From positions 1 through 27,877 of the forward strand of contig JAKMAE010000005.1 of NCBI GenBank assembly GCA_022014875.1: a stretch of DNA of 27,877 nt, written 5' to 3'. The notes beneath the pieces were generated by a model. The model saw only the letters and a program-made list of their open reading frames with translations, did no database searches and was not told the DNA's origin. Source of the DNA: Vulcanisaeta sp. Lineage in GTDB: Archaea; Thermoproteota; Thermoprotei; Thermoproteales; Thermocladiaceae. The position numbers were made by a program, and so were the translations under genes. Shown here piece after piece: positions 2,888-25,567 of this stretch. The number at the start of each line of letters is the position of its first letter. Position 1 is the stretch's first letter.

Positions 2888-5383
2888 CTAGCCCAATACC
2901 TGCTCTATCCTGCGTTCACCACCCACCTTAACCAACCTAGTAATGCTATAGTTAACGCCCGCGTTCCTCGCGGCATCTAGGATATCGTTTAGTAAGTCCT
3001 CTGACTGCGTGGTGATGATTACCTGGCCCACCAAGCCCTCCTTAACGAGCCTGGCCAACAATGAGGCGAAGGCCCTCCTGATGTTTTGGTCTACGTACGG
3101 TATTGGCTCATCCATGAGCAGGAAGTCTACGTTGTGATTGGTAGCCCTGTAAACACTTAATAGGAATGATAACGCGATCGTGAGCCTCTGCCCATCACTT
3201 AGCCTCGATACCGTGACCTTCCTACCACCTGGCCTTATTGCATAGAGCGTGTATTCACTGACGACACCAACAACACCCCTGTCCTTAACAGTGACCTCAA
3301 TACCCGCGCTCTCGAGGTCCTCGTACGGGTAGAGGGTCTTGAATATTGGGCCTACGTTATCACGTACCAACCTAATCATCTCATCCCTAACCCTGGCCTG
3401 CACATCCCTAATCCCAGCCCTAATCCGGGCCAACCTGTTGTAGAGGTCCTCGAGGAAGTCCAGCCTCCTCCTAAGTACCGAGGGGTCCTCCTTATCGAGG
3501 CCAATCCTAGCCAGGATTAGCTCCAACCTACTGAGCTCGGCGGAATACTCACCCAACCTATTCCTTACCTGCATTAGTTTATCACTGACGTACTTAATCT
3601 CATCTTCAAGCCTGATTATCACGTTCGTATCCAGGCCAAGCCTGGCGAGCTGGTTCTTAAGTTCCTCCTCCTGCGCCCTCAGTTTCTCAAGCTCCCTGTA
3701 CTTCCTCAGGTACGCTATTGACTTATCGACATTATCAACCTCAGTCCTAAACTCATCAATAAATCGCGTGAGGGTTTGTATCCTCCTGTCTAAATCCCTT
3801 ATGGACCCATCAATGGTCTCTAACCTAGTAATCAACGCATCAAGCCTAGACCTAATCTCTCGCGCCCTCTCAATCGTCGCCTCATAATCATTAACTATTG
3901 GCCGTAGGGACTCCATCCTCGTAAAAACCCTCTCTAGTTCACTAATTCTATCCTTAATCGCATTGACGCTCTCCCCCGCCTCTACGGATGATAACTCCTT
4001 AATCCTCCTCCTAATCATCTCGTAATCCTCCTCACTAAGTGGCTTACCGCATATGGGGCATTTCTCCTCGCGTGTTGATAATACGTATTGAAGGACGGTC
4101 AATAGTGATAACCTAAACCTCTCCTCGGCGCTCATCTTCTCTAGCTTTTCTTTCAATTCATAAAGCTCCCTCCTAACCCTCTCGGGCTCACCGTACTTAC
4201 TCACCAACTCCCTATACTCCCTCACCCTACCCTCCTCCTGCGCAAGCCTACTCTCTAACTCCTTTAATGTTGACTTCTCGGCCTCGGTTTGTATCTCCAG
4301 GTCCTGCCGGACCCTGTTTAGATAATCCCTATCCTCCATTAATTTATCCTTAAGCTTCACGAGACCCTCAAATGCTGAGTATATGCGTTCCAGGGCATCT
4401 GCCAGGTTTTCACTGGTTATGACCAACTTCCCCAACTCCTCTGCTTCCTTGACCAGTGCGAATTCCTCAAGCTTCTCGACAAGAACATCCCTAAGCCTCT
4501 CAAGTCTCAGCCTAATGCTTGTCTCATTGACCTCCCTAACATTGGCCTTGCGCAACTCCTCCTCAATACTCTCCCTCCTTAATCGGGTAGCTATGTAGTT
4601 GCTGTAAACCTCCTCAACACCCTTCAAACCCTTTAGCAGCTCCTCCCTCTTACTCAATAACTCGTTATATGCCCTACTCAATTCCTCCTCCTCCCTCCTT
4701 AACCTATCTATCTCAGCCCTTAGCTCCTGCATTTTCTCCCTGGCCTTTTCGATAGAGCCGTACTTACTCGTTATTTCAGGCAACTCCTTAATACTAGCGA
4801 GTTTCTGCCTCAATTCTGTGATCAACTTCTCAATTTGAGTCATGGGTATTGACTTATTGAGGTTATCAAGTATTTCCAAACCGAATAATTTATCTATCAA
4901 GATGCTCCTCTTAGTTACACTACCGTACACCAGGGCCTCCAGGGTCCTGTGCGTAACTAGGATGAATCTCTCGAAGTCATCATCATCAACACCCAGCACC
5001 TCCGTAATCCTCCTATCCACATCACCGCCCTTAACCGTTATCGAGCCGATGATTGCCCTCGCCTCCTCCCTCGCAGACTCACCGCTTCTTCTCAAAACCC
5101 TCGTTATGACCGATCCATCGCTCAGCACCAACCTGACCATCGAATCCGTGGACTCCTCATTTATCAAATCGACCAACCTAGATATCCTCTCCTTAACCTC
5201 CAGTTGCGTGCCGTAGAGTGCATACTCGATGGCCTGTATTATACTTGTTTTTCCGGATCCGACGGGGCCGTGGATTATGTTTATGCCGTCGTTAAATACG
5301 ACCCTATGCTCATTCCTAAAGCCCCTGAAGTTCCTAATAACCAACTCCTTAATCCTAACCTTCACCTTCACCCACCTCAACAC
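2888..5383 (-). CDS. rkd-4: Rad50/SMC-like coiled-coil ABC ATPase in the arcadin-4 position of the arcade cluster
   Basis: N-terminal Walker A GPVGSGKTS. About 600 aa of heptad-rich, E/R/K/L-rich coiled coil, with CPICG (Cys442/Cys445, nt 4049-4060) at its midpoint. C-terminal signature LSDGQR and Walker B/D-loop FLLMDEPIPYVD. It is the last gene of a crenactin operon. The start is ambiguous: GTG 5383, TTG 5380, GTG 5371 or GTG 5365. Confidence 0.8.
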   Translation of the reverse strand: MLRWVKVKVRIKELVIRNFRGFRNEHRVVFNDGINIIHGPVGSGKTSIIQAIEYALYGTQLEVKERISRLVDLINEESTDSMVRLVLSDGSVITRVLRRSGESAREEARAIIGSITVKGGDVDRRITEVLGVDDDDFERFILVTHRTLEALVYGSVTKRSILIDKLFGLEILDNLNKSIPMTQIEKLITELRQKLASIKELPEITSKYGSIEKAREKMQELRAEIDRLRREEEELSRAYNELLSKREELLKGLKGVEEVYSNYIATRLRRESIEEELRKANVREVNETSIRLRLERLRDVLVEKLEEFALVKEAEELGKLVITSENLADALERIYSAFEGLVKLKDKLMEDRDYLNRVRQDLEIQTEAEKSTLKELESRLAQEEGRVREYRELVSKYGEPERVRRELYELKEKLEKMSAEERFRLSLLTVLQYVLSTREEKCPICGKPLSEEDYEMIRRRIKELSSVEAGESVNAIKDRISELERVFTRMESLRPIVNDYEATIERAREIRSRLDALITRLETIDGSIRDLDRRIQTLTRFIDEFRTEVDNVDKSIAYLRKYRELEKLRAQEEELKNQLARLGLDTNVIIRLEDEIKYVSDKLMQVRNRLGEYSAELSRLELILARIGLDKEDPSVLRRRLDFLEDLYNRLARIRAGIRDVQARVRDEMIRLVRDNVGPIFKTLYPYEDLESAGIEVTVKDRGVVGVVSEYTLYAIRPGGRKVTVSRLSDGQRLTIALSFLLSVYRATNHNVDFLLMDEPIPYVDQNIRRAFASLLARLVKEGLVGQVIITTQSEDLLNDILDAARNAGVNYSITRLVKVGGERRIEQVLG

Positions 5384-5540
5384 CGACCTCCCTCAATACC
5401 TCGTTGATCACCTCAAGCACGCCGCGCCTACCCTTTTCCTTATAGGCCAGGTACAACCTCACGGCTAGCTCCGCATCATTACCCAACCTCTCCCTGAGAA
5501 GCCTAGTGATTAACTCATCAAGCTCACCCACCCCCACCAC
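5355..5540 (-). CDS. rkd-3: Small helical protein in the arcadin-3 position
   Basis: 61-aa ORF with helical, charged composition (ELDELITRLLRERLG...VLEVINEVLREVG). It overlaps the 3' end of arcadin-2 by 17 nt and the 5' end of arcadin-4 by up to 29 nt. An AGGAGG lies just upstream of several in-frame GTG start candidates (5540, 5537, 5531). The assignment rests on position only. Confidence 0.5.
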   Translation of the reverse strand: MVGVGELDELITRLLRERLGNDAELAVRLYLAYKEKGRRGVLEVINEVLREVGVEVGEGEG

Positions 5541-6207
5541 CCCTCCTTCTAAGAACCTCTATCCACGGGTTATCACTGAGGAAGTCAGGTAACTCACCAC
5601 CTCCACCACCCTCCGTACTGACCTGAGCCGTGTTCGCCGCGGTAATGCCAACCCTCTCTAATCTGCTCACCCTATTGATCAAGTCGTTGATTGTACTCTC
5701 CATTCTCAGCAACTTTTCCCTTAATTCAGCAACATCCCTCATTAAGGTCTTTATATTCAGTCCATCGACGGCGCTCCTTAGCTCAGCAATTGTTTTCTCT
5801 ATTTCGCTTAATCTCTTCTCAATCTCCTCATTACCACCCTGCGGGAGCTGGATTGGTATGCTGGGTATCAACTCCTCAACTGCCCTATCTGGATCACTTA
5901 AGGCACTGCTTACGTCGTAAAGGTAAACGCCGACCCAATGGCTTTTGAATAGTTTTCCATTTATTAACCCACGGGCATTACGTGGAAACGCTATGTAGGC
6001 CTTGTTATACTTTAGCCTATTCTTCATTGCCGCGCTCAATTCATCAATGATGTACGACTCTGTCGGGAACTCCTCACTCGAAATCCTCACATACACCTTG
6101 TTATTGCCTTCAATAAGCACTAACTCCCTCTCACCCTCATACTCCAGCCTAAGCCCCCTCCTTGCGAACCACTCCTCGAGAACCTTCTTTGCGATTTCAA
6201 TACTCAT
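5524..6207 (-). CDS. rkd-2: Arcadin-2-like crenactin-binding protein
   Basis: 227 aa, directly downstream of crenactin. It has a globular N-terminal domain and a central coiled coil (EIEKRLSEIEKTIAELR...LREKLLRMESTINDLINRVSRLE). The C-terminal peptide ELPDFLSDNPWIEVLRRR is flanked by two Gly5 runs. This fits the published architecture, in which the arcadin-2 C-terminal peptide binds crenactin. Confidence 0.7.
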   Translation of the reverse strand: MSIEIAKKVLEEWFARRGLRLEYEGERELVLIEGNNKVYVRISSEEFPTESYIIDELSAAMKNRLKYNKAYIAFPRNARGLINGKLFKSHWVGVYLYDVSSALSDPDRAVEELIPSIPIQLPQGGNEEIEKRLSEIEKTIAELRSAVDGLNIKTLMRDVAELREKLLRMESTINDLINRVSRLERVGITAANTAQVSTEGGGGGELPDFLSDNPWIEVLRRRGGGGG

Positions 6208-6274
6208 TTAACCTAGCACTATAATTACTTACCACACCCTTTTTAACCCAATTGAATCGAGACGTGGGTTTAAC

Positions 6275-7582
<1,308 letters not shown>

Positions 7583-7585
7583 CTA

Positions 7586-7592
7586 CATCACC
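7586..7592 (-). promoter_or_regulatory. Shine-Dalgarno for crenactin, overlapping the arcadin-1 stop codon
   Basis: The minus strand reads ttGGTGATGtagATG. The TGA stop of arcadin-1 (7588-7590) lies inside the SD. Confidence 0.55.
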
Positions 7593-7920
7593 AAATCGCC
7601 TTTACAGTGATGTACTCATTATTAAACATTATTACGTACGTGTCGTCGAACGACTTAACCCTAGGCTTTAAGTAATCCCTCAACTCATTGGGCAGTGACT
7701 TGGATGATTCCTCGATGCAGCTAATGACGGTATTAACCACGTCCTTGGCATTCTCAGCCTTGGTCTCTATGTAATACATTGCCTGGTACTTAATTCCATT
7801 ATCAACGACTAGGTACTTAATGTTGAGTCCACTTAATATGCAGGAAATAAACCTGCGGCTTTCTCTCACAATATCATTATTATCCCTAATCTCACCAACC
7901 TCACACCTTGGGCATTCCAC
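7588..7920 (-). CDS. rkd-1: Arcadin-1-position small protein
   Basis: 110 aa, first gene of the cluster, 5 nt upstream of crenactin. GTG start 26 nt from a TATA box. N-terminal CPRC. Assigned by synteny and size, not by recognised sequence identity. Confidence 0.55.
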   Translation of the reverse strand: MECPRCEVGEIRDNNDIVRESRRFISCILSGLNIKYLVVDNGIKYQAMYYIETKAENAKDVVNTVISCIEESSKSLPNELRDYLKPRVKSFDDTYVIMFNNEYITVKAIW

Positions 7921-7942
7921 GGTTGACTTATTGGCAATAAGG

Positions 7943-7949
7943 TTTATAA
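7943..7949. promoter_or_regulatory. Near-palindromic TATA box (TTTATAA) in the divergent arcade / 7993 intergenic region
   Basis: Centred 26 nt from GTG 7920 on the minus strand, so that transcript would be leaderless. Read on the plus strand, it would give a 5'UTR of about 23 nt containing AGGTG (7980-7984) ahead of ATG 7993. A second box, ATTATAA, lies at 7974-7980. Confidence 0.45.
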
Positions 7950-7992
7950 GGCAATTGTGCTTTAGAGTTCGAGATTATAAGGTGCGTATTAT

Positions 7993-8352
7993 ATGGAAAA
8001 CCAATTAATCCTTGAGGTTAGGGATCTTGGTAATATAGTCATTAAGCTAGAGCCTACTCTATCACCAATAACATACTCAAGGTTAAGTAAGTCATTGCCC
8101 ACTAGGACGAACGCTATAAGATACGGCCAGGTAATCATACTACCCCTCGACTTGGGCGCTGTGAGCGAGGGCAAGAGAACGAGCCTTAGGCCGTATGAGG
8201 TTGGTTACTGGGTCAAGAAGAAGAGCTTAGTCATTGCATTGGGCGATGTCGAGCTGAGGGAGCAAGTCAATGTACTGGGTTACGTAGTTGCCGGCGTTGA
8301 ATTACTTAGTAAATTGAATGGTGGATACTCAATAAGGGTCACGATGAAGTGA
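7993..8352 (+). CDS. Cyclophilin-like (TM1367-type) small protein
   Basis: 119 aa. The pattern ...EVGYWVKKKSLVIALGD......VNVLGYVVAGVELLSKLNGG..IRV resembles the cyclophilin-like PF04126-type family as I remember it. No PPIase catalytic motif checked. Confidence 0.45.
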   Translation: MENQLILEVRDLGNIVIKLEPTLSPITYSRLSKSLPTRTNAIRYGQVIILPLDLGAVSEGKRTSLRPYEVGYWVKKKSLVIALGDVELREQVNVLGYVVAGVELLSKLNGGYSIRVTMK

Positions 8353-8735: not shown

Positions 8736-9290
8736 TTAATATACGTATTTCATTACCTGAAGCGCACTCCTTATCTCCTCCAATAAGGCGACTAAAACAA
8801 GCAACGCGCTTCGCCTGTTCGTGGCTATCAACGGCATGATCTTCACGGTATAGGGCACCTTCAATATGTTCCTAACAGTGTTCAAACTCACGGCACTTGG
8901 TACATCCTGCTTATTCGCCGCAACTATGTGTGGTGTGTTTGGGAAATTCTCCTGGAAGAAACTATACATATTGATGGCCTCCTTAACCCTATCCTCGCTT
9001 GAGCTATCCACTATGAATACGTAACCATGCATACCCCTGGCTATTATCTTCCACATAAAGCTGAACCTTTCCTGGCCAGGCACGCCGAATAAGTGTACGA
9101 CCAAGTCCTCCCTAACCTTCATCTTGCCGTAATCAAAGGCGACAGTCGTGCTCCTCTTACCATCGAGTGAGCCCTTTGTCACAGGTACGTCGGTCTCTAT
9201 TGGCAACACCTCGCTGAGCGTCTTAACGAGCGTCGTCTTCCCAGCGCCGTATGGTCCAGCTATTACGATCTTGAGGACCTTTATTGGCAT
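8736..9290 (-). CDS. Small Ras-superfamily GTPase (archaeal MglA-like / COG2229 type)
   Basis: G1 GPYGAGKTT, G3 FGVPGQERF, G4 NKQD. About 184 aa. ATG 9290 lies 9 nt after the Roadblock stop. The ORF track uses GTG 9299. Confidence 0.85.
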   Translation of the reverse strand: MPIKVLKIVIAGPYGAGKTTLVKTLSEVLPIETDVPVTKGSLDGKRSTTVAFDYGKMKVREDLVVHLFGVPGQERFSFMWKIIARGMHGYVFIVDSSSEDRVKEAINMYSFFQENFPNTPHIVAANKQDVPSAVSLNTVRNILKVPYTVKIMPLIATNRRSALLVLVALLEEIRSALQVMKYVY

Positions 9291-9299
9291 TGCAACCAC

Positions 9300-9797
9300 T
9301 TATAGAACGGCCTTGCTCCTGATGAAGTTTATTACGTCCTCTATGTCCTTCGGCGTTATCTCCACATTTATTACCTCAATCAACTCCTCCTCACTAACCT
9401 TGACCAACCTGCTCAATAGGTTGTATAACTTGTCGGAGTACTTCTCGAGCAGAATCCTCGTGAGCCCTATCGAGGCCTCCGAATTACCAATAATCATTAA
9501 GTAACCCATGTCCCTAATACTTACTAATTGTATTATGCCTTCGGCGCCCTGCATGAGGACGTAATCAACATTCCCAATGGGTAGCGTCGATATTAGGCTC
9601 TTCAGGGAGGTTATGAATCGAGGCGCTGCGAAGAAGGTGTTGCTGGTATTTATCAGTATTGAGTTGGTTGTGTACGCTATCACGGTGCCCTCCCTATCCA
9701 TTACGTACACAGCCCTTATCTGATCTGGGCTTTCCGAGATTATTTCCTCAGTCGAAAGCTTAATCTCGTCTATAATTCTTTGAACCTCCGCGCCCAC
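9300..9797 (-). CDS. Roadblock/LC7 (MglB-like) domain protein with C-terminal extension
   Basis: The N-terminal part (IRAVYVMDREGTVIAYTT...GNVDYVLMQGAEGIIQLVSIRDMGYLMIIGN) has the Roadblock/LC7 alpha-beta pattern. It lies immediately upstream of, and is co-oriented with, a small GTPase, which is the classic pairing. GTG start 24 nt from a TATA box. Confidence 0.7.
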   Translation of the reverse strand: MGAEVQRIIDEIKLSTEEIISESPDQIRAVYVMDREGTVIAYTTNSILINTSNTFFAAPRFITSLKSLISTLPIGNVDYVLMQGAEGIIQLVSIRDMGYLMIIGNSEASIGLTRILLEKYSDKLYNLLSRLVKVSEEELIEVINVEITPKDIEDVINFIRSKAVL

Positions 9798-9920: not shown

Positions 9921-10265
9921 ATGATAACAATTAGGGGCTACGTAGTAAGTAAGACGCTGGTTACTGACCCCACTGGCGGTAGGATGATCGCGATTCAAAT
10001 AGTTGAGGAGAGGGAATCACCAGGCCCGGTGATTACGGGCACTGACGAAATGTCGCAGGTGATGCGTGACGTGATGCCACTCGTACAGCAGTTACTTAGG
10101 TCAATGCCGATGGTCGGTCCATTGATGAGTGGTAAGGTACCAATACCGAGGCTCCTAATCTGGCTTAATGAGGATGAGGCCGAGGCCCTGGGACCCAGGC
10201 TGGATGTTGGTGATGCTGTTGAGATTAGGATTGACAATGGAAAACTCGAGTTGGTTAAGGTTTAG
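9921..10265 (+). CDS. Hypothetical 114-aa protein
   Basis: Clean ORF with its own TATA box and a T5 run right after the stop. The C-terminal LGPRLDVGDAVEIRIDNGKLELVKV faintly resembles an AbrB/SpoVT-type swapped-hairpin strand pair. There is no firm family assignment. Confidence 0.55.
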   Translation: MITIRGYVVSKTLVTDPTGGRMIAIQIVEERESPGPVITGTDEMSQVMRDVMPLVQQLLRSMPMVGPLMSGKVPIPRLLIWLNEDEAEALGPRLDVGDAVEIRIDNGKLELVKV

Positions 10266-10270
10266 TTTTT
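10266..10270 (+). terminator. T5 run directly after the stop of the 9921 ORF
   Basis: tagTTTTTaaacc. It overlaps the stop codon of the convergent rpoK. Confidence 0.35.
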
Positions 10271-10622
10271 AAACCTGAACCCCAAACTCCCTACTCAGGT
10301 CTAGCAAATCCTTGAGCTTAATTCTAACCTGCCTACCGTTTGGTAGCGTCCTAATTATTACGAACGGTATCAACCCCCTACGTACCTCCTCGTAGGCTAT
10401 GAGCACAGGGTCATACGTCCCAAGCTTCTGCGGATCAATCATTGGCCGCGCCCCCATGGCTAATTGTTTAGCCCTTGCGGCGACCAATCTAGCGAGTTCG
10501 TACTTCGTTATCCTAGGCGGATATACTAATTTACCCTTTATTAACTCATCAATTCTCCTTAGGACAATGCTTAATGGATCCTCTTTTAAGACTGAACCCG
10601 GGGTTTGGTCTGTGGAGGACAT
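10269..10622 (-). CDS. rpoK: DNA-directed RNA polymerase subunit K (Rpb6/omega homologue)
   Basis: ITKYELARLVAARAKQLAMGARPMI...EEVRRGLIPFVIIRTLPNG matches the RpoK core (Sulfolobus: [22 protein letters not shown]...EEFKRGVLPITIRRRLPNG). Confidence 0.9.
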   Translation of the reverse strand: MSSTDQTPGSVLKEDPLSIVLRRIDELIKGKLVYPPRITKYELARLVAARAKQLAMGARPMIDPQKLGTYDPVLIAYEEVRRGLIPFVIIRTLPNGRQVRIKLKDLLDLSREFGVQV

Positions 10623-10638
10623 TGGGAAAAACCGTGGT

Positions 10639-10655
10639 AAATAATTATTTTAAAA
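10639..10655 (-). promoter_or_regulatory. TATA box for rpoK
   Basis: The minus strand reads TTTTAAAATAATTATTT, centred about 25 nt upstream of ATG 10622. Confidence 0.45.
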
Positions 10656-10679
10656 CTTAACTTAATCGGTTTGTTTTGA

Positions 10680-12344
10680 TTAGTCTGTCTTCGATGATGA
10701 CGACTCCTCCTCACTCTTCTCCTCCTTGCCCTTTGACTTACCGCCGCTGCTACTCTTCGTCTGCGCGGCCGCAACTATATCGTCAATCCTCAATATCATT
10801 ATTGCAGCCTCCGCGGCGCTCCTAATTACCTGCTTCTTAACGAGCAGTGGATCCACAACATTTAGCTTGTACATGTTGGCGACCTTACCGTTGAGCACGT
10901 CAACGCCGGCATCGATCTCCCCAGCATCATGCCTTCTCCTTAACTCAGCTATCACATCCACTGGGTCAAGGCCCGCTGTTAAGGCTAGTATTGTCGGTAC
11001 CTGCTCTAGGGCCTCTGCAAACTTGAGCACTGCCAACTGCTCCTTGCCAGGTAGTTTCCTACCCCACTCCCTAAGCCTCCTCGCTACCTCTATTTCGAAG
11101 GCGCCACCGCCAGGCACTATCTTTGGCTCCCTGTATAGGTCCCTAATCACGTGTAATGCATCCTGCATTGACCTCTCGGCCTCATCCAGTATCCTGTCGG
11201 CTGCGCCCCTTATCAGTATTGTGACCGCCCTTGGGTTCGGGCACTGCTCTATAAATACCATCTTCTCCTCGCCGACCTTCCTCTCCTCGACAAGCCCTGC
11301 AAAGCCTAGGTCCTCAGGCCTTATGTCCTTAATGCTCGTGACTATCTTGGCGCCCGTGGCCTTAGCCAGCTTCTCAATATCGCTCCTCTTAACCCTCCTA
11401 ACAGCCATTATGCCCTTCTTAGCCAGGTAGTGCTGCGCAACCTCGTCAATGCCCTTCTGGGTAATTACCACGTTTGCACCAACCTCGGCTAGCTTATCGA
11501 CGTATGACTTCAGTATGTTGGCTTCCTCCTCTAGGAATGCCTTTATCTGATTGGGTGATGATACGGATATCTTAGTAGTCCACTCGGGCTTCTCGATCTC
11601 CAGTGGCGCGTCTAGGACGGCTATCTTTGCATTAACAACCCTCTTCGGCATTCCGGGATGCACAACCTCCTTATCGAGGACAATACCCTGTATTAACTGG
11701 GTCTCTGCGAGGGACTGGCCTTTCTTCTTCTCAAGCTTTATCCAATCCAGGTCTAGGTTGTACCTGCCGTCAACCTTCTCCACAGCGATTGAGGCAGCCT
11801 CCACGGCAATCTTGGCGAGGTACTCCCTGGCCTCGGCAACGATCTTACTACTCAACGCGTTCATCGCCACGGTTGCCAGTTGATTCTTGTCCTCGACATT
11901 TATTGGCTGGGCAATTTCATTAGCGACTTGTATTGCGTAGTCCATAGCCTTCTTATAACCATCGATTATTATAGTCGGGTGTATACCCTCATCAATCAAC
12001 TCCTCAGCAAGCTCTAATAACCTGCCCGCTAGGACCACCGCAGTCGTTGTGCCATCGCCAACCTCGGCATCCTGAGCCTTCGCAACCTCGATCAATAACT
12101 TAGCGGCTGGGTGCTGGACCTCCATCTCCTTCAATATTGTAGCTCCATCGCCAGTTATTGTGACATCTCCAAAGGCATCAATCAGCATCTTATCCATGCC
12201 CCTAGGGCCGAGGCTAGTCGATAGTATTTCGGCAATTACCTTAGCGGCCATTATATTACTCCTCCTCGCATCTGCGCCTGTCGTTCTTTGCGCACCTTCC
12301 TTAAGGATCATTACTGGAATTCCACCCTTTTGTTGGCTGCTCAT
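10680..12344 (-). CDS. ths: Thermosome subunit (group II chaperonin)
   Basis: 554 aa. [30 protein letters not shown] and the overall CCT/thermosome layout are present. The C-terminal tail is Ser/Lys/Glu-rich rather than GGM-type. Confidence 0.95.
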
Positions 12345-12917: not shown

Positions 12918-12943
12918 TTACGTATTTCATTGCTTAATAGGGA

Positions 12944-12957
12944 AAAGTGTATAAGTT
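12944..12957 (+). promoter_or_regulatory. TATA box for the acetyltransferase gene
   Basis: aaagtgtataagtt, centred 27 nt upstream of ATG 12978. It lies inside the ORF-track N-terminal extension. Confidence 0.45.
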
Positions 12958-12977
12958 GTAAATTCATCATCCCTGTA

Positions 12978-13535
12978 ATGGACGGAGATGTTGTTCAGGA
13001 CGTAACTAGGAAGCTTGAGGGTCGTGAATACATTCGAGGAAAAAATGGGAAAGTATTCGTACTTAGGGAGTTCGAGATAACGGACCTAAACGCCGTAGTT
13101 TATATAAACAGGGCCGTACTGCCGGAGAATTACCCCGAGTTCTTCTTCGTTGAGCACTACAGGAGTTTTCCAAAGGCCTTCATAGTAGCTGAGCTTGACG
13201 GTAGGGTTGTGGGTTACATGATGAATAGGGTCGAGTTTGGCTGGAGCTACATATGGAGGGGTAAACCTACGAGGAAGGGTCACGTAATATCGATAGGGGT
13301 TTTACCCGAGGCGCGTAGGTTGGGTATTGCGTATAACATGATGATTAGGGGTATGAGGGCCATGAAGTACTTCTACGGTGCGGAGGAGGTCTACCTCGAA
13401 GTTAGGGTTTCCAATACACCGGCCATTAATCTATACAAGAAGTTGAATTACAAAATAGTCGACCTAATAAAGGGGTACTACCACGATGGTGAGGATGCGT
13501 ACATAATGGCTAGGCCACTTACAGACTTCGCTTGA
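12978..13535 (+). CDS. ard1: N-alpha-acetyltransferase, Ard1/Naa10-like (GNAT; often annotated RimI)
   Basis: INRAVLPENYPEFFFVEHY...RKGHVISIGVLPEARRLGIA...EEVYLEVRVSNTPAINLYKKLNYK...KGYYHDGEDAYIMARPL runs closely parallel to Sulfolobus Ard1 as I recall it. Start moved from TTG 12930 to ATG 12978. Confidence 0.85.
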   Translation: MDGDVVQDVTRKLEGREYIRGKNGKVFVLREFEITDLNAVVYINRAVLPENYPEFFFVEHYRSFPKAFIVAELDGRVVGYMMNRVEFGWSYIWRGKPTRKGHVISIGVLPEARRLGIAYNMMIRGMRAMKYFYGAEEVYLEVRVSNTPAINLYKKLNYKIVDLIKGYYHDGEDAYIMARPLTDFA

Positions 13536-19415: not shown

Positions 19416-19436
19416 CTTAATCATGGGTTGCAAGCA

Positions 19437-22400
19437 ATGCCTATAGGTAATCTTAGCATTGGGCAGGGCAACGCCCCGGACTCAGTGCCGTTACCAATAC
19501 TGAGGTCTAAGAGGACCCGTGGTAAATTCCCGACATCCGACGATAGATGGGCCCTAGTTGAGGCATTCATTAAGGAGGGCGGCTTAGTTAGGCACCAAAT
19601 CGAATCGTTCAACGACTTTATTGAGAGGAGGCTGCAGAAGATCATTAATGAGATTGGCGTAATCGAGACGGATATAAAGGGGCTTTACATAAAGCTTGAG
19701 AAGATAGAGGTTGGGAAGCCCAGGGTTAGGGAAGCCGACGCTAGCGAGCACTTGCTATACCCAATGGAGGCTAGGCTCAGGAACCTGACATACGCGGCCC
19801 CGTTATACCTAACAATGACTCTCTACGTCAATGACGAGGAGGTTGATAGGCAGAGGGTGTATATAGGTGATTTACCGATAATGGTTCGTTCAAAGTACTG
19901 CAACCTCTATGGGCTTAAGAGGGAGGAGTTGATCAAGAAGCTCGAGGATCCGGATGATCCAGGCGGTTACTTCATAATAAACGGTAGTGAGAGGGTCGTA
20001 GTGTCCCAGGAAGATCTAGCGCCAAATAGGCCGTTTTATGATAAGGGTGATAAGGCGAGTATTACGCACGTCGCTAAGGTTATATCGATTGGCGCTGGTT
20101 ATAAAACCACCGTTACGGTGGAGAGGCATAAGGATGGTATAATATACGTAACGTTCCCTGCCGTGGCCACTAGGATACCGTTTCCAATAATAATGAGAGC
20201 CCTCGGTCTAGAGACCGATGAGGACATAGTACTCGCCGTAAGTGATGACCCAGACATACAGAATGAACTACTACCATCGCTACAGTACTCACTCCAGATA
20301 GCTAGTACTGTCGAGGACGCGCTGGACTTCATAGGCAGTAAGGTTGCGATTGGGCAGCCTAGGGAGGTTAGGATTGAAAGGGCCAAGCAAGTCCTTGATA
20401 GGTACTTCCTGCCACACCTAGGGACTACCGAGGATGCGAGGTTGAAGAAGGCTTTGATGGTTGGGCAAATGGTTAAGGGCGTTATAGAGATGTACCTAGG
20501 CCGTAGAGAGCCTGACGATAAGGATCACATGGCAAATAAGAGGGTTAGGCTCGTTGGTGACCTACTAGATCAACTATTTAGGGCGGTATTTAAGCAGTTG
20601 GTGCAGGACATAAGGCAACAACTTGAGAAGCATTACTCAAGGGGTAAGGTACCGAGTCTCGTGACGATAGTCAGGGCTGACATAATAACCGAGAGAGTGA
20701 GGCATGCGTTGGCAACTGGTAATTGGGTTGGTGGGAGGACTGGCGTTTCTCAGATGCTCGATAGGACAAACCTATTATCAACTCTAAGCCACCTAAGGAG
20801 GGTCGTCTCGAACCTAAGTAGGACGCAGCCGCACTTCGAGGCTAGGGACCTACACCCAACCCAGTGGGGCAGGTTATGCGCAATCGAGACGCCGGAGGGT
20901 CAAAACTGCGGCTTGGTTAAGAACCTGGCCTTGCTCGCCACCGTCACTGTCGGCGTTGACGAGAACGAGGTTGAAAAACTACTTTATGACTTAGGCGTCA
21001 TCCCAATACTAACCGCTAGGAAGAATGGGGTCAAGGGCACGGAGGTGTACCTAAACGGTAGGCTCATTGGCATACACACAGACCCGGATAGGTTAGTGAT
21101 GACGATTAGGGAAATGAGGAGGAGGGGTCAAATAAGCCATGAAATCAATGTCGCGAGAATACGCAGAGGCGCGCTGGATGAGGTTAGGGTTAACTGCGAT
21201 GCCGGTAGGCTTAGGAGGCCCGTCCTCATCATAGAGAATGGCAGCCTGAGGCTCAAACCAGAGCATATCGAGAAGTTAAGGAGTGGTGAGTGGTCCTGGT
21301 CCGACCTAATCAACAACGGCATAATCGAGTACCTGGATGGTGATGAGGAGGAGAACGCGTTAATAGCCATAAACCCGGAGGATGATTTGAGTAAGTACAC
21401 GCACATGGAGATAATACCGTCAGCGATGTTAGGCGCTGTGGCGTCCATAATCCCCTACGCTGAGCATAATCAATCACCAAGGAATATATACGAAGCAGCA
21501 ATGGCGAAGCAAAGCCTTGGTTTCCCAGCAGCTAATTATAGATTCAGGCTAGATAGTAGGGGGCACCTACTGATATATCCCGAGAGACCGTTGGTAATAA
21601 CCAGGGGTATAGAACTTAACGGGTACCTAAGGAGACCGGCTGGCCAGAATGCCGTCGTCGCGCTACTGACGTACACGGGCTATAACATGGAGGATGCCGT
21701 CATATTGAATAAGGCATCGATCGAGAGGGGCATGTACAGAAGCGTGTTCTATAGGACCTACGAGACGGAGCAGATGAGGTATCCGGGTGGTGAGGAGGAT
21801 AGGATAGAAATACCATCACCGGAGGTTAAGGGGTATAAGGGCCCAGAGGCTTATGCGCACCTCGATGAGGACGGTATAGTCCCACCTGAGGTCTTCGTAT
21901 CAGGCGGTGAGGTCCTTATTGGTAAGACATCACCGCCAAGGTTCTACGGCGTATATACAGAGACCGTGCTGCCCAGCGCCAGGAGGGACTCATCAATAAC
22001 CGTTAGGCGTGGTGAGAAGGGCATTGTCGACAGCGTACTCATAACAGAGACAAACGAGGGTTATAAACTAGTTAAGGTAAAGGTTAGGGAGTTGAGAATA
22101 CCCGAGCTTGGGGACAAATTCGCAAGCAGGCATGGCCAGAAGGGTGTTACGGGGATGATAATACCCATGGAGGACATGCCGTTCACGGAAGACGGCATAA
22201 CCCCCGACATAATCGTTAACCCACACGCACTGCCTAGCAGGATGACTGTTGGCCAATTACTCGAGTCAATGGCGGGTAAGATTGCCGCGCTAAGGGGCGT
22301 GATGATAGACGCCACGCCATTTGAGGGCGTGACTGAGGAGGAGCTTAGGGACCTTCTCATACGGTCAGGCTTTAGGTGGGATGGTAAGGAGGTCATGTAT

Positions 22401-22862
22401 AGCGGAATAACCGGTAGGAAGCTTGAGGCGGATATATTCATAGGCATTGTCTATTACCAAAAGCTCCACCACATGGTTGCCGATAAGATACACGCTAGGG
22501 CTAGGGGCCCCGTACAAATACTGACTAGGCAACCAACCGAGGGCAGGTCTAGGGAGGGTGGCCTTAGGCTTGGCGAGATGGAGAGGGACGTATTGATAGC
22601 GCATGGCGCGGCTGCACTGTTGAGGGAGAGGCTTATGGAGTCGAGTGATAAGTATGTAATGTATGTATGCGAGGATTGCGGCATGATTGCCTGGTACGAT
22701 GCGAATAAGGGCAAGCCTGTGTGTCCAATACATGGCGATAAAGGTAGGATAGCCAGGGTTATTGTGCCGTACGCATTCAAGCTACTGCTTCAGGAATTAA
22801 TAAGTCTAGGTATATACCCAAAGATTGAGTTAGGCGACCTAATTGAGGAGAGGAGAGCTTAA
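19437..22862 (+). CDS. rpoB: DNA-directed RNA polymerase subunit B (unsplit)
   Basis: About 1141 aa. Motifs include GDKFASRHGQKGV, LHHMVADKIHARARGP and the C-terminal Zn motif CEDCG...CPIHG. I use ATG 19437; the ORF track uses TTG 19428. Confidence 0.97.
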   Translation: MPIGNLSIGQGNAPDSVPLPILRSKRTRGKFPTSDDRWALVEAFIKEGGLVRHQIESFNDFIERRLQKIINEIGVIETDIKGLYIKLEKIEVGKPRVREADASEHLLYPMEARLRNLTYAAPLYLTMTLYVNDEEVDRQRVYIGDLPIMVRSKYCNLYGLKREELIKKLEDPDDPGGYFIINGSERVVVSQEDLAPNRPFYDKGDKASITHVAKVISIGAGYKTTVTVERHKDGIIYVTFPAVATRIPFPIIMRALGLETDEDIVLAVSDDPDIQNELLPSLQYSLQIASTVEDALDFIGSKVAIGQPREVRIERAKQVLDRYFLPHLGTTEDARLKKALMVGQMVKGVIEMYLGRREPDDKDHMANKRVRLVGDLLDQLFRAVFKQLVQDIRQQLEKHYSRGKVPSLVTIVRADIITERVRHALATGNWVGGRTGVSQMLDRTNLLSTLSHLRRVVSNLSRTQPHFEARDLHPTQWGRLCAIETPEGQNCGLVKNLALLATVTVGVDENEVEKLLYDLGVIPILTARKNGVKGTEVYLNGRLIGIHTDPDRLVMTIREMRRRGQISHEINVARIRRGALDEVRVNCDAGRLRRPVLIIENGSLRLKPEHIEKLRSGEWSWSDLINNGIIEYLDGDEEENALIAINPEDDLSKYTHMEIIPSAMLGAVASIIPYAEHNQSPRNIYEAAMAKQSLGFPAANYRFRLDSRGHLLIYPERPLVITRGIELNGYLRRPAGQNAVVALLTYTGYNMEDAVILNKASIERGMYRSVFYRTYETEQMRYPGGEEDRIEIPSPEVKGYKGPEAYAHLDEDGIVPPEVFVSGGEVLIGKTSPPRFYGVYTETVLPSARRDSSITVRRGEKGIVDSVLITETNEGYKLVKVKVRELRIPELGDKFASRHGQKGVTGMIIPMEDMPFTEDGITPDIIVNPHALPSRMTVGQLLESMAGKIAALRGVMIDATPFEGVTEEELRDLLIRSGFRWDGKEVMYSGITGRKLEADIFIGIVYYQKLHHMVADKIHARARGPVQILTRQPTEGRSREGGLRLGEMERDVLIAHGAAALLRERLMESSDKYVMYVCEDCGMIAWYDANKGKPVCPIHGDKGRIARVIVPYAFKLLLQELISLGIYPKIELGDLIEERRA

Positions 22863-22877
22863 AATGGATTAATACAT

Positions 22878-22886
22878 GAGGTGATG
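22878..22886 (+). promoter_or_regulatory. Shine-Dalgarno for rpoA1
   Basis: GAGGTGATG, 4 nt upstream of ATG 22891. Confidence 0.55.
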
Positions 22887-22890
22887 AGCG

Positions 22891-25563
22891 ATGGCTCAGA
22901 CCGAAAAAACCGTTGTTCGGGAGGAGGAAATACCGCTCAAGACGATTAAGTCGATAAAGTTTGCATTGCTATCGCCAGATATCATAAGGTCTATGTCCGT
23001 GATGGAGATAACCACGTCCGAGACGTATGACGAGGCTGGTAGGCCAATGGTTGGGGGGTTAATGGATAGGAGACTCGGCGTTGTGGAGCCAGGCGCTAGA
23101 TGCGAGACATGCGGTAACCCGCCTGATAAATGCCCTGGCCACTTCGGCAGAATAGAGCTTGCTAAACCAGTCATACATGTTGAGTATGCTAAGTACATAT
23201 ACGATTTACTGAGGGCGACCTGCAGGGAGTGTGGTAGGATATTATTGACGGATGAGGAGATTGAGAAGTACCGGAAGAGACTTGAGAGGTTGAGGGTTAG
23301 GTGGAGACTACTCGCAGACAAGCTTGTTGAGAGGATTAGGAAGAAGGCCATGGAGAGGACGGTGTGTCCACACTGCGGTGCTAAGCAGTACAAGGTTAGG
23401 TTTGAGAGACCATACACATTCTATGAGGAGAAGGAAAACGGTGTTTTAGAGAAGCTCGACCCGGTAAAGATTAGGGAGAGGCTCGAGAAGATACCCGATA
23501 GCGACCTCGAACTACTAGGTTGGGATCCAAAGGCTGCTAGGCCCGAGTGGGCCATTCTCACGGTGTTGCCTGTACCCCCACCGCAGGTGAGGCCCTCAAT
23601 CCAGCTAGAGACTGGGCAGAGGAGTGAGGATGACCTGACGCATAAGCTTGTCGATATTGTTAGGGTTAATGAGAAGTTAAGGACCGCCATAGAGTCCGGC
23701 GCGCCAAGCACAGTCATTGACCAATTATGGGATCTACTTCAGTATCACGTAGCTACCTACTTCAACAATGAATTACCCAACCTACCGCCTGTTAAGCACA
23801 GAAGTGGTAGGCCTCTGAAGACCCTGGCACAGAGGCTTAAGGGTAAGGAGGGTAGGTTTAGGGGTAGTCTGTCAGGTAAGAGGGTTGATTTCTCGGCTAG
23901 GACCGTCATAAGCCCAGACCCGAACCTGAGCATTAACGAGGTTGGCGTACCAATAGACGTGGCCAAGATACTAACCGTGCCCATGGTCGTAACGGAGTGG
24001 AACATCGACCTAGCAAGGCAGTTGGTCCTCAACGGCCCCGAGGTGTGGCCGGGGGCTAACTACGTTATTTACCCAGACGGTAGGAGGGTCGACCTAAGGT
24101 ACTTCAGGGATAGGCGTGAATTAGCCAATAAGTTGGCGCCGGGCTTTGTCGTGGAGAGGCACTTAATGAATGGTGACATAGTCCTCTTCAACAGACAGCC
24201 AAGCCTGCACAGGATGTCGATGATGGGGCACCTGGTTAGGGTGTTACCCGGCAGGACGTTTAGGCTACACCTGGCTGTTTGTCCACCATACAATGCGGAT
24301 TTTGATGGTGATGAAATGAACCTACACGTACCGCAGAACGAGGAGGCCAGGGCTGAGGCTAGGATGTTAATGCTTGTTCAGAACCACATAATAACCCCGA
24401 GGTACGGCGGCCCCATCATAGGCGCGAGGCAGGACTACATAACAGGTGGTTACCTACTCACTAGGAAGGACACATTTGTGAATAAGGAATTACTGATGTA
24501 CCTACTGGCGGCGGCCAATTACGAGGGTGAGATTGACGAACCAGCCATAATGCACCCTAAGGAGCTTTGGACCGGTAAGCAGGTCATATCAATGCTATTG
24601 CCCAAAGACCTTAATTGGGTTCAACCAACTGCTATAAAGGAGAGTTGTAAGGATCCATACAACTGCTACACCGATGAGTACATAGTGATTGTTAATGGTT
24701 ACATGGCCACGGGAGTGCTGGATAAGAAATCAATAGGTGCTGAGCAGGTTGATTCGTTGTGGCACGTCATTGTTAAGAGGTACGGTAATGACTATGCGAG
24801 GAAATGGATAGATTCCGTACTTAGGGCATTACTAAGGTTCCTAGACCTGAGGGGGTTCACGATGGGCATTGACTCGCTTGAAATGCCGAGGGAGAGCTAC
24901 GAAGAGCTTGCCAAGCTATATGAGGAGAGTGAGAGGAAGGTCTTCGAGTACATACAGAGGTATAGAGAGGGCAAGCTCGAGGCCGAGCCGGGCCTAACGG
25001 TTGAGGAGACCCTGGAGAATAACATAACGATTGAGCTAAGTAGGGTTAGGGAGGCTGCGGCCCGCGTAGTTGAGAAGTACATAAACAAGGACAGCGATGC
25101 CTACATAATGGCTAAGACCGGCGCTAGGGGCAGTATAATCAACATAACGCAGATGGTTGCGATGATTGGGCAGCAGACAATCAGGGGCGAGAGGTTCAAG
25201 AGGGGGTTCTATGGAAGGACAACCGCTCATTTCGAACCGGGTGATCTAGGGCCAATGGCTAAGGGCTTCGTTAGGAATAACTTCAAGGTCGGACTATCAC
25301 CGATAGAGTTCTTCTTCCACGCTGCTGGTGGTAGGGATGGCCTGGTCGATACGGCTGTTAGGACAGCCCAGAGCGGTTATATGCAGAGGAGGTTGATCAA
25401 TGCGTTGCAAGACATCTACGTGGCCTATGACGGCACCGTTAGGAGCGCAAATGGCTCCATAATCCAGACGAAGTATGCCGAGGACGGCATCGACGTTAGT
25501 AAGAGCGATCATGGAAGGCTTAATATAGATGAGATCTTAAGGAGGGTAGGCCTGGGTGGGTGA
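22891..25563 (+). CDS. rpoA1: DNA-directed RNA polymerase subunit A' (Rpb1 N-terminal part)
   Basis: 890 aa. N-terminal Zn motifs CETCG...CPGHFG and the catalytic YNADFDGDEMNLHVPQ. Confidence 0.97.
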   Translation: MAQTEKTVVREEEIPLKTIKSIKFALLSPDIIRSMSVMEITTSETYDEAGRPMVGGLMDRRLGVVEPGARCETCGNPPDKCPGHFGRIELAKPVIHVEYAKYIYDLLRATCRECGRILLTDEEIEKYRKRLERLRVRWRLLADKLVERIRKKAMERTVCPHCGAKQYKVRFERPYTFYEEKENGVLEKLDPVKIRERLEKIPDSDLELLGWDPKAARPEWAILTVLPVPPPQVRPSIQLETGQRSEDDLTHKLVDIVRVNEKLRTAIESGAPSTVIDQLWDLLQYHVATYFNNELPNLPPVKHRSGRPLKTLAQRLKGKEGRFRGSLSGKRVDFSARTVISPDPNLSINEVGVPIDVAKILTVPMVVTEWNIDLARQLVLNGPEVWPGANYVIYPDGRRVDLRYFRDRRELANKLAPGFVVERHLMNGDIVLFNRQPSLHRMSMMGHLVRVLPGRTFRLHLAVCPPYNADFDGDEMNLHVPQNEEARAEARMLMLVQNHIITPRYGGPIIGARQDYITGGYLLTRKDTFVNKELLMYLLAAANYEGEIDEPAIMHPKELWTGKQVISMLLPKDLNWVQPTAIKESCKDPYNCYTDEYIVIVNGYMATGVLDKKSIGAEQVDSLWHVIVKRYGNDYARKWIDSVLRALLRFLDLRGFTMGIDSLEMPRESYEELAKLYEESERKVFEYIQRYREGKLEAEPGLTVEETLENNITIELSRVREAAARVVEKYINKDSDAYIMAKTGARGSIINITQMVAMIGQQTIRGERFKRGFYGRTTAHFEPGDLGPMAKGFVRNNFKVGLSPIEFFFHAAGGRDGLVDTAVRTAQSGYMQRRLINALQDIYVAYDGTVRSANGSIIQTKYAEDGIDVSKSDHGRLNIDEILRRVGLGG

Positions 25564-25567
25564 AATT

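Follow-up and report, generated by a model that had tools for sequence, protein, structure and literature searches.

A 27,877-nucleotide stretch of Vulcanisaeta sp. DNA (Thermoproteota, Thermocladiaceae; assembly GCA_022014875.1, contig JAKMAE010000005.1, positions 1 to 27,877 of the forward strand; hereafter the window, ~48% G+C) carries the crenactin cytoskeleton cluster, or arcade cluster, in a lineage-specific form. Crenactin is among the closest prokaryotic relatives of eukaryotic actin. In the window, crenactin, arcadin-2, arcadin-3 and arcadin-4 form a four-gene core headed by a different, undescribed gene of 110 codons, whose family is named fam110 here, and arcadin-1 is detached from the operon. 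fam110 is proposed to be a crenactin-binding component. Taken as a whole, this explanation of the locus is given a probability of about 0.8.

An initial annotation had read positions 2888-7920 as a complete five-gene arcade operon with the gene order and sizes of the Thermoproteales cluster. Four of its five assignments (crenactin, arcadin-2, -3 and -4) hold, as do order and sizes from crenactin to arcadin-4, but the operon is not complete, since arcadin-1 lies outside the interval and the slot before crenactin holds an unrelated gene. The open reading frame (ORF) sizes, their common orientation and the 5-nt gap before crenactin are as then described, according to the ORF listing. The features are as follows.

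7588-7920, minus strand: fam110, 110 aa, GTG start, leading the operon; no known family matched, supported by codon pattern and linkage.
6275-7582, minus strand: crenactin, 435 aa, actin-family filament-forming ATPase; NF053560 and PDB matches.
5524-6207, minus strand: arcadin-2, 227 aa, divergent orthologue; NF053561 best match, colinear alignment, position.
5542-5595, minus strand: arcadin-2 C-terminal peptide ELPDFLSDNPWIEVLRRR, residues 205-222; motif conservation.
5355-5540, minus strand: arcadin-3, 61 aa, small acidic helical protein; NF053562 best match, alignment, position.
2888-5383, minus strand: arcadin-4, 831 aa, Rad50/SMC-like ABC ATPase with a long coiled coil; NF053563, Pfam AAA_23 and SMC_N.
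4046-4060, minus strand: arcadin-4 CPICG zinc hook, residues 442-446; motif.
9921-10265, plus strand: true arcadin-1, 114 aa; PF18653, PDB 5LY5.
7941-7951, minus strand: putative archaeal TATA/BRE (TFB recognition element) promoter element CCTTATAAACC; invariant in 7/7 aligned Vulcanisaeta loci.
6239-6258, minus strand: conserved spacer block GATTCAATTGGGTTAAAAAG, candidate internal promoter; alignment of 7 Vulcanisaeta loci.
6211-6215, minus strand: TAGGT resembling a Shine-Dalgarno (SD) sequence before arcadin-2; sequence pattern.

All five ORFs of the operon are co-oriented on the minus strand, with successive junctions from fam110 to arcadin-4 of +5, +67, -17 and -29 nt, and 11 other loci have orthologues of all five in this order.

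The Gene before Crenactin Is Not Arcadin-1

The arcade cluster described for Pyrobaculum calidifontis and Thermoproteus runs rkd-1, cren-1, rkd-2, rkd-3, rkd-4 (Ettema et al. 2011, via PMC5173319). The initial annotation had assigned the 110-aa ORF to arcadin-1 by synteny with this order, an assignment refuted by the missing PF18653 and 5LY5 signals and by the presence of the true arcadin-1 at 9921-10265 on the plus strand. fam110 matches no Pfam or NCBIfam family (Pfam scan at E<=1). A search of 25 fam110 members with the arcadin-1 family model PF18653 gave no match, even at E<=10, and PDB searches with the single sequence and with two family profiles did not find 5LY5, the arcadin-1 structure. 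Profile-profile alignment of fam110 with arcadin-1 (hhalign) returned a probability of 0.6%. 5LY5 is likewise absent from the top 50 Foldseek matches of an AlphaFold2 (AF2) model of fam110 with a mean predicted local distance difference test score (pLDDT) of 91. That negative is meaningful because a positive control worked: an AF2 model of the true arcadin-1 retrieves 5LY5 at rank 1 (E=4.7e-6, template modelling (TM) score 0.73). The control is a single-sequence model with pLDDT 67 and topology beta-beta-alpha-beta-alpha-beta-beta; its low-confidence segments, 32-40, 62-64 and 66-73, fall inside the region disordered in the crystal, 32-71. As the upstream gene is not arcadin-1, the assignment by synteny is wrong and the locus is not a complete five-gene arcade operon.

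The ORF at 9921-10265 is identified by homology as arcadin-1. It scores 120.2 bits on Pfam PF18653 Arcadin_1 (cut-off 25) and matches 5LY5 at E=3.2e-28. It lies on the strand opposite to the operon, ~2 kb upstream of the operon start, and its relative position is the same in every Vulcanisaeta locus. The gene directly before crenactin in Thermoproteus tenax (111 aa) and in a Pyrobaculum metagenome-assembled genome (MAG; 113 aa) carries PF18653. The protein from the Pyrobaculum MAG matches 5LY5 at E=2.8e-57 and is visibly like the ORF at 9921-10265. The Pyrobaculum arcadin-1 is described as oligomerising and as binding crenactin weakly (dissociation constant ~15 uM), with polymerisation unaffected (PMC5173319). 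After 5LY5, the arcadin-1 model gives weak matches to single-stranded DNA-binding proteins of the OB fold (SSB, PriB; E 0.03-0.1, TM 0.3-0.45), which are too weak to call; the structure paper, in its account of arcadin-1, reports no similarity to any PDB entry (PMC5173319).

Crenactin and Arcadins 2 to 4

The 435-aa protein is crenactin. It scores 770.6 bits on NCBIfam NF053560 (cut-off 630), residues 7-432 aligning with model positions 1-422, and matches PDB entries 4CJ7, 4BQL, 5LY3 and 5MW1 at E=1e-172 over residues 5-433, 4CJ7 and 4BQL being P. calidifontis crenactin. The best eukaryotic actin in the PDB is reached at E ~1e-6, and Pfam Actin gives 38.8 bits. The same identification had been made initially from three actin motifs, including ILSGGAFSW, all of which are found in the translation, and a better score to the MreB, ParM or Hsp70 families had been named as evidence to the contrary; no such better fit is seen, the score being 770.6 bits for crenactin against only 56 bits for the MamK model. 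Two NCBI Vulcanisaeta sp. MAGs encode proteins 100% identical to it, and its identity to the crenactins of named Vulcanisaeta species is ~90%. P. calidifontis crenactin is described as polymerising, driven by ATP, into double-helical filaments resembling F-actin (PMC5173319), and at ~65% identity to that orthologue Vulcanisaeta crenactin would be expected to form filaments as well.

Database records of crenactin need some care. In NCBI, the identical protein of both MAGs and many orthologues are labelled "heat-shock protein Hsp70," a propagated misannotation, and JGI lists some as crenactin. In several JCM drafts (L001, L014, L015, L018 and L019), crenactin and/or arcadin-4 are broken into 2-4 overlapping frames, most likely through homopolymer sequencing errors and not because they are pseudogenes.

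Relative to the Pyrobaculum and Thermoproteus arcade, the window keeps the order crenactin, arcadin-2, arcadin-3, arcadin-4 on a single strand, the genes overlapping or abutting one another, and conserves the arcadin-2 helix and the arcadin-4 motifs. It differs in that fam110 fills the upstream slot, arcadin-1 is inverted and ~2 kb away, and arcadin-2 and -3 are too divergent for the NCBIfam equivalog cut-offs. The 227-aa and 61-aa ORFs are nonetheless recognised as divergent arcadin-2 and arcadin-3, in agreement with the initial annotation, because both align end to end with their T. tenax and Pyrobaculum counterparts, both stand at a position conserved in >20 loci and arcadin-2 keeps its C-terminal tryptophan helix. 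For arcadin-2, the best NCBIfam match is NF053561 Rkd2 (E=2e-10, 40.6 bits; residues 4-223 on model positions 2-196), a model that appears tuned to Pyrobaculum and Thermoproteus sequences. The protein aligns colinearly and over its full length with the Thermoproteus and Pyrobaculum genes, and its gene stands immediately 3' of crenactin in each locus that has the downstream arcadin block. For arcadin-3, the best match is NF053562 Rkd3 (E=2.7e-8, 33.7 bits); alignment gives 25-31% identity to the proteins of L020 and L021 and an LA..LY.AYK..G motif common to all, and there is a 17-nt overlap between the start of the gene and the end of arcadin-2. Hidden Markov models (HMMs) built from these alignments give a single match in the expected place in each locus with the downstream block.

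Arcadin-2 is predicted to begin with a globular domain, followed by a coiled-coil segment, a linker rich in glycine and, at the C-terminus, a helix that would bind crenactin. The stretch before the terminal peptide has only weak coiled-coil-family matches. The protein ends in ...GGGGGELPDFLSDNPWIEVLRRRGGGGG, a short conserved peptide between glycine runs that can be written ...GGGGG-ELPDFLSDNPWIEVLRRR-GGGGG. It contains DNPWIEVLRRR, for which the T. tenax counterpart is DNEWVKILRKR. W215 is invariant in 10 orthologues, including those of T. tenax and Pyrobaculum, which have the motif DN[PE]W[VI]x[VI]L[RK] in common, and NPW is kept in the homologues of Infirmifilum (L030) and L031. Peptide 205-222 is the counterpart of P. 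calidifontis peptide 187-203, which inserts into the hydrophobic groove of crenactin. In P. calidifontis, the final 17 residues of arcadin-2 are reported to bind this groove with nanomolar affinity, chiefly through tryptophan and hydrophobic residues (Izoré et al., PMC5173319), and the helix to compete with the D-loop of the next subunit, thereby sequestering monomers and depolymerising filaments (PMC5173319). By homology and the conserved motif, the arcadin-2 of the window would bind the same groove and sequester monomers. Such a helix may be likened to other binders of the actin groove, thymosin beta4/WH2, cofilin and ParR, in that a short amphipathic C-terminal segment with a tryptophan blocks a longitudinal contact; there is no sequence homology among them, and convergence has been suggested (PMC5173319).

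The 831-aa ORF is arcadin-4, as first proposed, scoring 949.7 bits on NF053563 Rkd4 (cut-off 860) against <=159 bits on Rad50 models, with further matches to Pfam AAA_23 and SMC_N. Like Rad50 and SMC proteins, it has Walker A (GPVGSGKTS), a CxxC hook (CPICG), a signature (LSDGQR), Walker B (FLLMDEP) and a long coiled coil, and these motifs are conserved in 10 orthologues. Two differences from Rad50 stand out. The cluster has no Mre11 partner, and in every orthologue examined (the L002-L025 set and the window) a glutamine within T/S-Q-S/T/D, ~33 residues past Walker B (residues ~792-795 in the window), replaces the H-loop histidine of Rad50/SMC proteins, a family-wide deviation in the ATPase switch. 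Arcadin-4 probably dimerises through its hook, bridging or anchoring filaments in an ATP-dependent manner.

The fam110 Family

Several lines of evidence establish fam110 as a coding gene. Full-length orthologues occur at 26-97% identity, and substitutions relative to four Vulcanisaeta orthologues number ~50, 30 and 16 at codon positions 3, 1 and 2. The same order, 3 > 1 > 2, is seen in arcadin-3, the other of the two smallest ORFs; the pattern indicates coding genes in both cases and purifying selection on fam110. By sequence comparison, fam110 is best described as a small, clade-restricted, unannotated family of Vulcanisaeta, Caldivirga and related MAGs. Among 1.84 billion representatives, only 20 relatives are recovered by an exhaustive HMM search. 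When the family alignment is used in a word-indexed search, only Vulcanisaeta and one MAG clade are reached, and the Caldivirga-type and distant members require the exhaustive search. All members with a source name are called "hypothetical protein." In the open-access literature, a scope that does not take in Ettema et al. 2011, no paper with both "crenactin" and "Vulcanisaeta" and no description of fam110 was found.

The AF2 model of fam110 (pLDDT 91, predicted TM score 0.83) has the topology alpha-beta-beta-alpha-alpha-beta-beta-beta, with helices (H) and strands (E) H14-31, E37-40, E47-54, H55-73, H78-83, E87-91, E94-98 and E102-109. The closest PDB folds by Foldseek are RsfS/iojap-like, several members matching with TM 0.54-0.59 over 92-104 aligned columns and E from 2e-3 to 0.1. 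The model thus marginally suggests a slightly acidic alpha/beta protein with an RsfS/iojap-like fold, that is, one like an inactive nucleotidyltransferase. RsfS/iojap proteins (MALSU1) are small, non-enzymatic, protein-binding modules, and the fold acts elsewhere as a steric blocker of macromolecular assembly. Sequence identity to fam110, however, is 6-16%, no Pfam RsfS match is obtained, and the context of fam110 is cytoskeletal, not ribosomal. Foldseek against viral structures gives only marginal nucleotidyltransferase-like matches.

In a broad family alignment, C6, R22, C27, G42 and Y50 are invariant and D40, N41, E52, V88 and E102 nearly so; a "VVDNGxKY...Y.E" motif lies on the first beta hairpin and its turn. 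Vulcanisaeta-type and Caldivirga-type members share a four-cysteine pattern (C3, C6, C27, C68) that could form a structural zinc site or disulfides. Arcadin-1 is of similar length but has no conserved cysteine, and according to the models it opens with a long beta hairpin, whereas fam110 opens with a helix and has a beta hairpin with a DNG turn. The isoelectric point (pI) of fam110 is ~5.1 in Vulcanisaeta (family median 6.1), which argues against nucleic-acid binding.

Three other identities for fam110 were considered and set aside. A likeness to prefoldin subunit 5 (E=0.03, a "VDxGxxY..YvE" hairpin, a thermosome gene nearby) disappeared with a broader profile, had no Foldseek support and is regarded as noise. 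The hG[GS]...DxD signature of an active minimal nucleotidyltransferase is absent from the family alignment. A DNA-binding regulator is disfavoured by the acidic pI and by the lack of any match to helix-turn-helix, ribbon-helix-helix or winged helix-turn-helix families.

Comparative Architecture of Crenactin Loci

Crenactin loci fall into seven arrangements, in which genes are listed in their order along the DNA and point rightward unless stated otherwise.

Type A, Pyrobaculum and Thermoproteus (L020, L021): arcadin-1, crenactin, rkd2, rkd3, rkd4; fam110 absent.
Type B, two MAG lineages (L022, L031) and Infirmifilum (L030), crenactin 49-60% identical: crenactin, rkd2, rkd3, rkd4; neither arcadin-1 nor fam110 within 5-6 kb; NPW of arcadin-2 kept.
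Type C, Vulcanisaeta (the window and six loci) and a deeper MAG clade (L004-L006, L009, L025): fam110, crenactin, rkd2, rkd3, rkd4; arcadin-1 nearby on the opposite strand.
Type D, L028: arcadin-1 and Alba pointing leftward, then fam110 and crenactin; rkd2-4 not downstream.
Type E, L027: fam110 and crenactin only.
Type F, L029, crenactin 64% identical: fam110, crenactin, arcadin-1, all on one strand.
Type G, Caldivirga and Thermocladium: crenactin alone; a distant fam110 homologue elsewhere, beside a GNAT acetyltransferase (L024, L026).

The conserved core is crenactin with arcadins 2, 3 and 4, reaching Thermofilaceae-level relatives, and the slot upstream of crenactin is evolutionarily plastic, occupied by arcadin-1, by fam110 or by neither. 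In the deeper MAG clade, arcadin-1 and Alba point away from fam110 in the order < arcadin-1 < Alba | fam110 >. This is the order that would result if the Thermoproteus "Alba > arcadin-1 >" segment were simply inverted. In Vulcanisaeta, cyclophilin-like, small GTPase and Roadblock-like genes are additionally inserted, besides Alba, between arcadin-1 and the operon.

Within the loci that carry it, fam110 lies directly upstream of crenactin and in the same orientation in 16 of 18, at crenactin identities of 64-100%. The junctions range from an ~8-nt overlap to a 14-nt gap, the sole exception being L023 with a 76-nt gap. This junction has been kept despite the relocation of arcadin-1 to three positions and the loss of arcadins 2-4 (L027, L028). 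fam110 and arcadin-1 co-occur in 14 of the loci examined, the window counted, and share a strand in L029. The family is confined to crenactin-bearing lineages of Thermoproteales. In seven Caldivirga and Thermocladium loci (L010-L013 and L016-L018; crenactin 66-70% identical), tblastn and HMM searches of the flanks found no arcadin-1, -2, -3 or -4 and no fam110. The Caldivirga-type fam110 genes (L024 334-654; L026 5001-5336) are convergent with the GNAT acetyltransferase gene. The window (12930-13535, plus strand), L025 and L028 likewise have a GNAT acetyltransferase gene within a few kb of the arcade region, and this neighbourhood may be a remnant of shared synteny.

What fam110 May Do

fam110 is proposed as a sixth, lineage-specific component of the arcade system that would be made together with crenactin and bind it, perhaps as a factor for assembly or for the handling of monomers. 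Gene linkage puts the chances of such co-production and binding at roughly even. The fuller proposal, that fam110 would be an "arcadin-5," a crenactin-binding sixth component that took over the operon-leading position of arcadin-1 in the Vulcanisaeta/Caldivirga branch, is offered somewhat more tentatively. Because fam110 is the most stably crenactin-linked gene of that branch and is kept without arcadins 2-4, it could be a primary handler of monomers or filament ends, for example as a nucleator, a capper or an assembly chaperone.

Several observations weigh against this picture of the locus. What ties fam110 to crenactin is gene adjacency, and the RsfS fold match is marginal (E ~2e-3, TM <0.6). 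The Caldivirga-type homologue stands away from crenactin (L024, L026). Pyrobaculum, Thermoproteus and Thermofilaceae have crenactin with no fam110 at all, which means that crenactin does not generally depend on fam110 for its function. Arcadin-2 and arcadin-3 fall under their curated cut-offs (40.6 against an equivalog cut-off of 290 bits for NF053561, 33.7 against 90 for NF053562), and the promoter and SD assignments discussed below are sequence patterns.

Other explanations of the 110-aa ORF fare less well. A canonical, complete five-gene arcade operon with this ORF as arcadin-1 (rkd-1) would account for the slot directly before crenactin and for a size, 110 aa against 111-113, like that of arcadin-1 in Thermoproteus and Pyrobaculum. 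With a bona fide arcadin-1 elsewhere in the window, the two genes together in 14 loci, and PF18653 and 5LY5 signals missing by HMM, profile-profile and Foldseek comparison alike when the control worked, it has very little left in its favour. Only slightly more credible is an extremely diverged arcadin-1 paralogue, an ancient duplicate that held the upstream slot when the original moved off. Similar length, small size with acidic to neutral character, and occupation of the same slot in different lineages would fit such a duplicate; the hhalign probability of 0.6%, the different order of predicted secondary structures, the conserved cysteines found in fam110 and not in arcadin-1, and the structural neighbours (RsfS-like for fam110, 5LY5 and then OB-fold-like for arcadin-1) do not. 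That the ORF is spurious and merely occupies the 5' leader of crenactin can be practically discounted: its GTG start, the lack of an annotated family and the uniform "hypothetical protein" entries are outweighed by full-length orthologues at 26-97% identity, substitutions mostly at codon position 3, a model pLDDT of 91 and a promoter element upstream of fam110 and not of crenactin.

A more serious alternative, though still an unlikely one, is that fam110 is a real gene unrelated to crenactin filaments, whether an operon regulator, an RsfS-like factor acting on another assembly or a passenger kept by operon inertia. It draws on the RsfS/iojap-like fold, on the Caldivirga homologues beside the GNAT acetyltransferase and on the fact that the interaction with crenactin is so far proposed from gene linkage. 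On the other side, the fam110-crenactin junction has outlasted at least four neighbourhood rearrangements and persists where crenactin identity is as low as 64%, the two genes are closely spaced with the SD within the upstream one, and fam110 is limited to crenactin-bearing Thermoproteales lineages. The missing DNA-binding motif, the acidic pI and the lack of a Pfam RsfS match also speak against this alternative.

Expression Signals

Transcription of the operon would start from a conserved TATA element ~26 nt before the fam110 GTG. The 72-nt divergent spacer before fam110 (7921-7992) is 84% identical over seven Vulcanisaeta loci. Within it the palindrome-cored CCTTATAA occurs twice, both copies being invariant. 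The end of the proximal copy (7941-7951) is 22 nt short of the GTG, a geometry expected of an archaeal TATA box with a leaderless or near-leaderless mRNA. The crenactin ATG is preceded by an SD-like GGTGA 10 nt upstream, within the 3' coding end of fam110, and with the 5-nt gap this would couple the translation of fam110 and crenactin.

A second block would consist of the overlapping arcadins 2, 3 and 4 and may be served by an internal promoter of its own. The 67-nt spacer between crenactin and arcadin-2 contains a conserved GATTCAATT[AG]GGTTAAAAAG block that is compatible with a candidate internal promoter, TTAAAAAG lying ~36 nt before the arcadin-2 ATG, and TAGGT occurs 4-8 nt before that ATG. 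AGGAGG stands before the start of arcadin-3, and GGAGGT before that of arcadin-4. These signals suggest two coupled modules, fam110-crenactin and arcadin-2-3-4, in agreement with the separate evolutionary retention of the two. A scan for sigma-70 promoters and intrinsic terminators is uninformative for an archaeon.

The divergent gene on the other side of the spacer, a cyclophilin-like gene at 7993-8352 (plus strand), scores 26.6 bits on Pfam (cut-off 27). The distal CCTTATAA copy is only ~13 nt from its annotated ATG, which makes either the gene start or the promoter assignment uncertain.

Significance

The Thermoproteales were long believed to lack both the FtsZ and the ESCRT division machinery. 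Crenactin and the arcadins are still named as the most likely division machinery of the Thermoproteales in a 2024 review (PMC7617429), and the functions of arcadins 1, 3 and 4 are described as unclear in a paper of the same year (PMC10936438). The arcade system itself is known. The novelty lies in the corrected gene assignment, the variant architecture, the plastic upstream slot and an unannotated family as candidate sixth component. The 110-aa ORF is a case in which a tempting annotation by synteny, as arcadin-1, is corrected, and fam110 emerges as a confidently foldable, unannotated family and a testable candidate partner of crenactin. If it does prove to be an "arcadin-5," it would offer a new experimental handle on how Thermoproteales cells, poor in FtsZ and ESCRT, are shaped and divided.

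Neighbouring Genes

A small Arf/Ras-like GTPase gene (8736-9299, minus strand; Pfam Arf 55 bits, ATP_bind_1 60 bits) abuts a 165-aa ORF (9300-9797, minus strand) with a weak Roadblock/LC7 match (E=0.011, under the cut-off). Together they form an MglA/MglB-like pairing between Alba and the true arcadin-1, seen only in the Vulcanisaeta loci and not in the deeper MAG clade.

Further out, 10269-12344 (minus strand) and 19428-26734 (plus strand) contain genes of the usual housekeeping kind, namely RpoK/Rpb6, thermosome, RNA polymerase B, A' and A'', arginyl-tRNA synthetase, phosphoglycerate mutase, an Obg-like GTPase and endonuclease dU. Throughout the Vulcanisaeta-side lineages, the arcade region keeps its synteny with RpoK, thermosome and arcadin-1.

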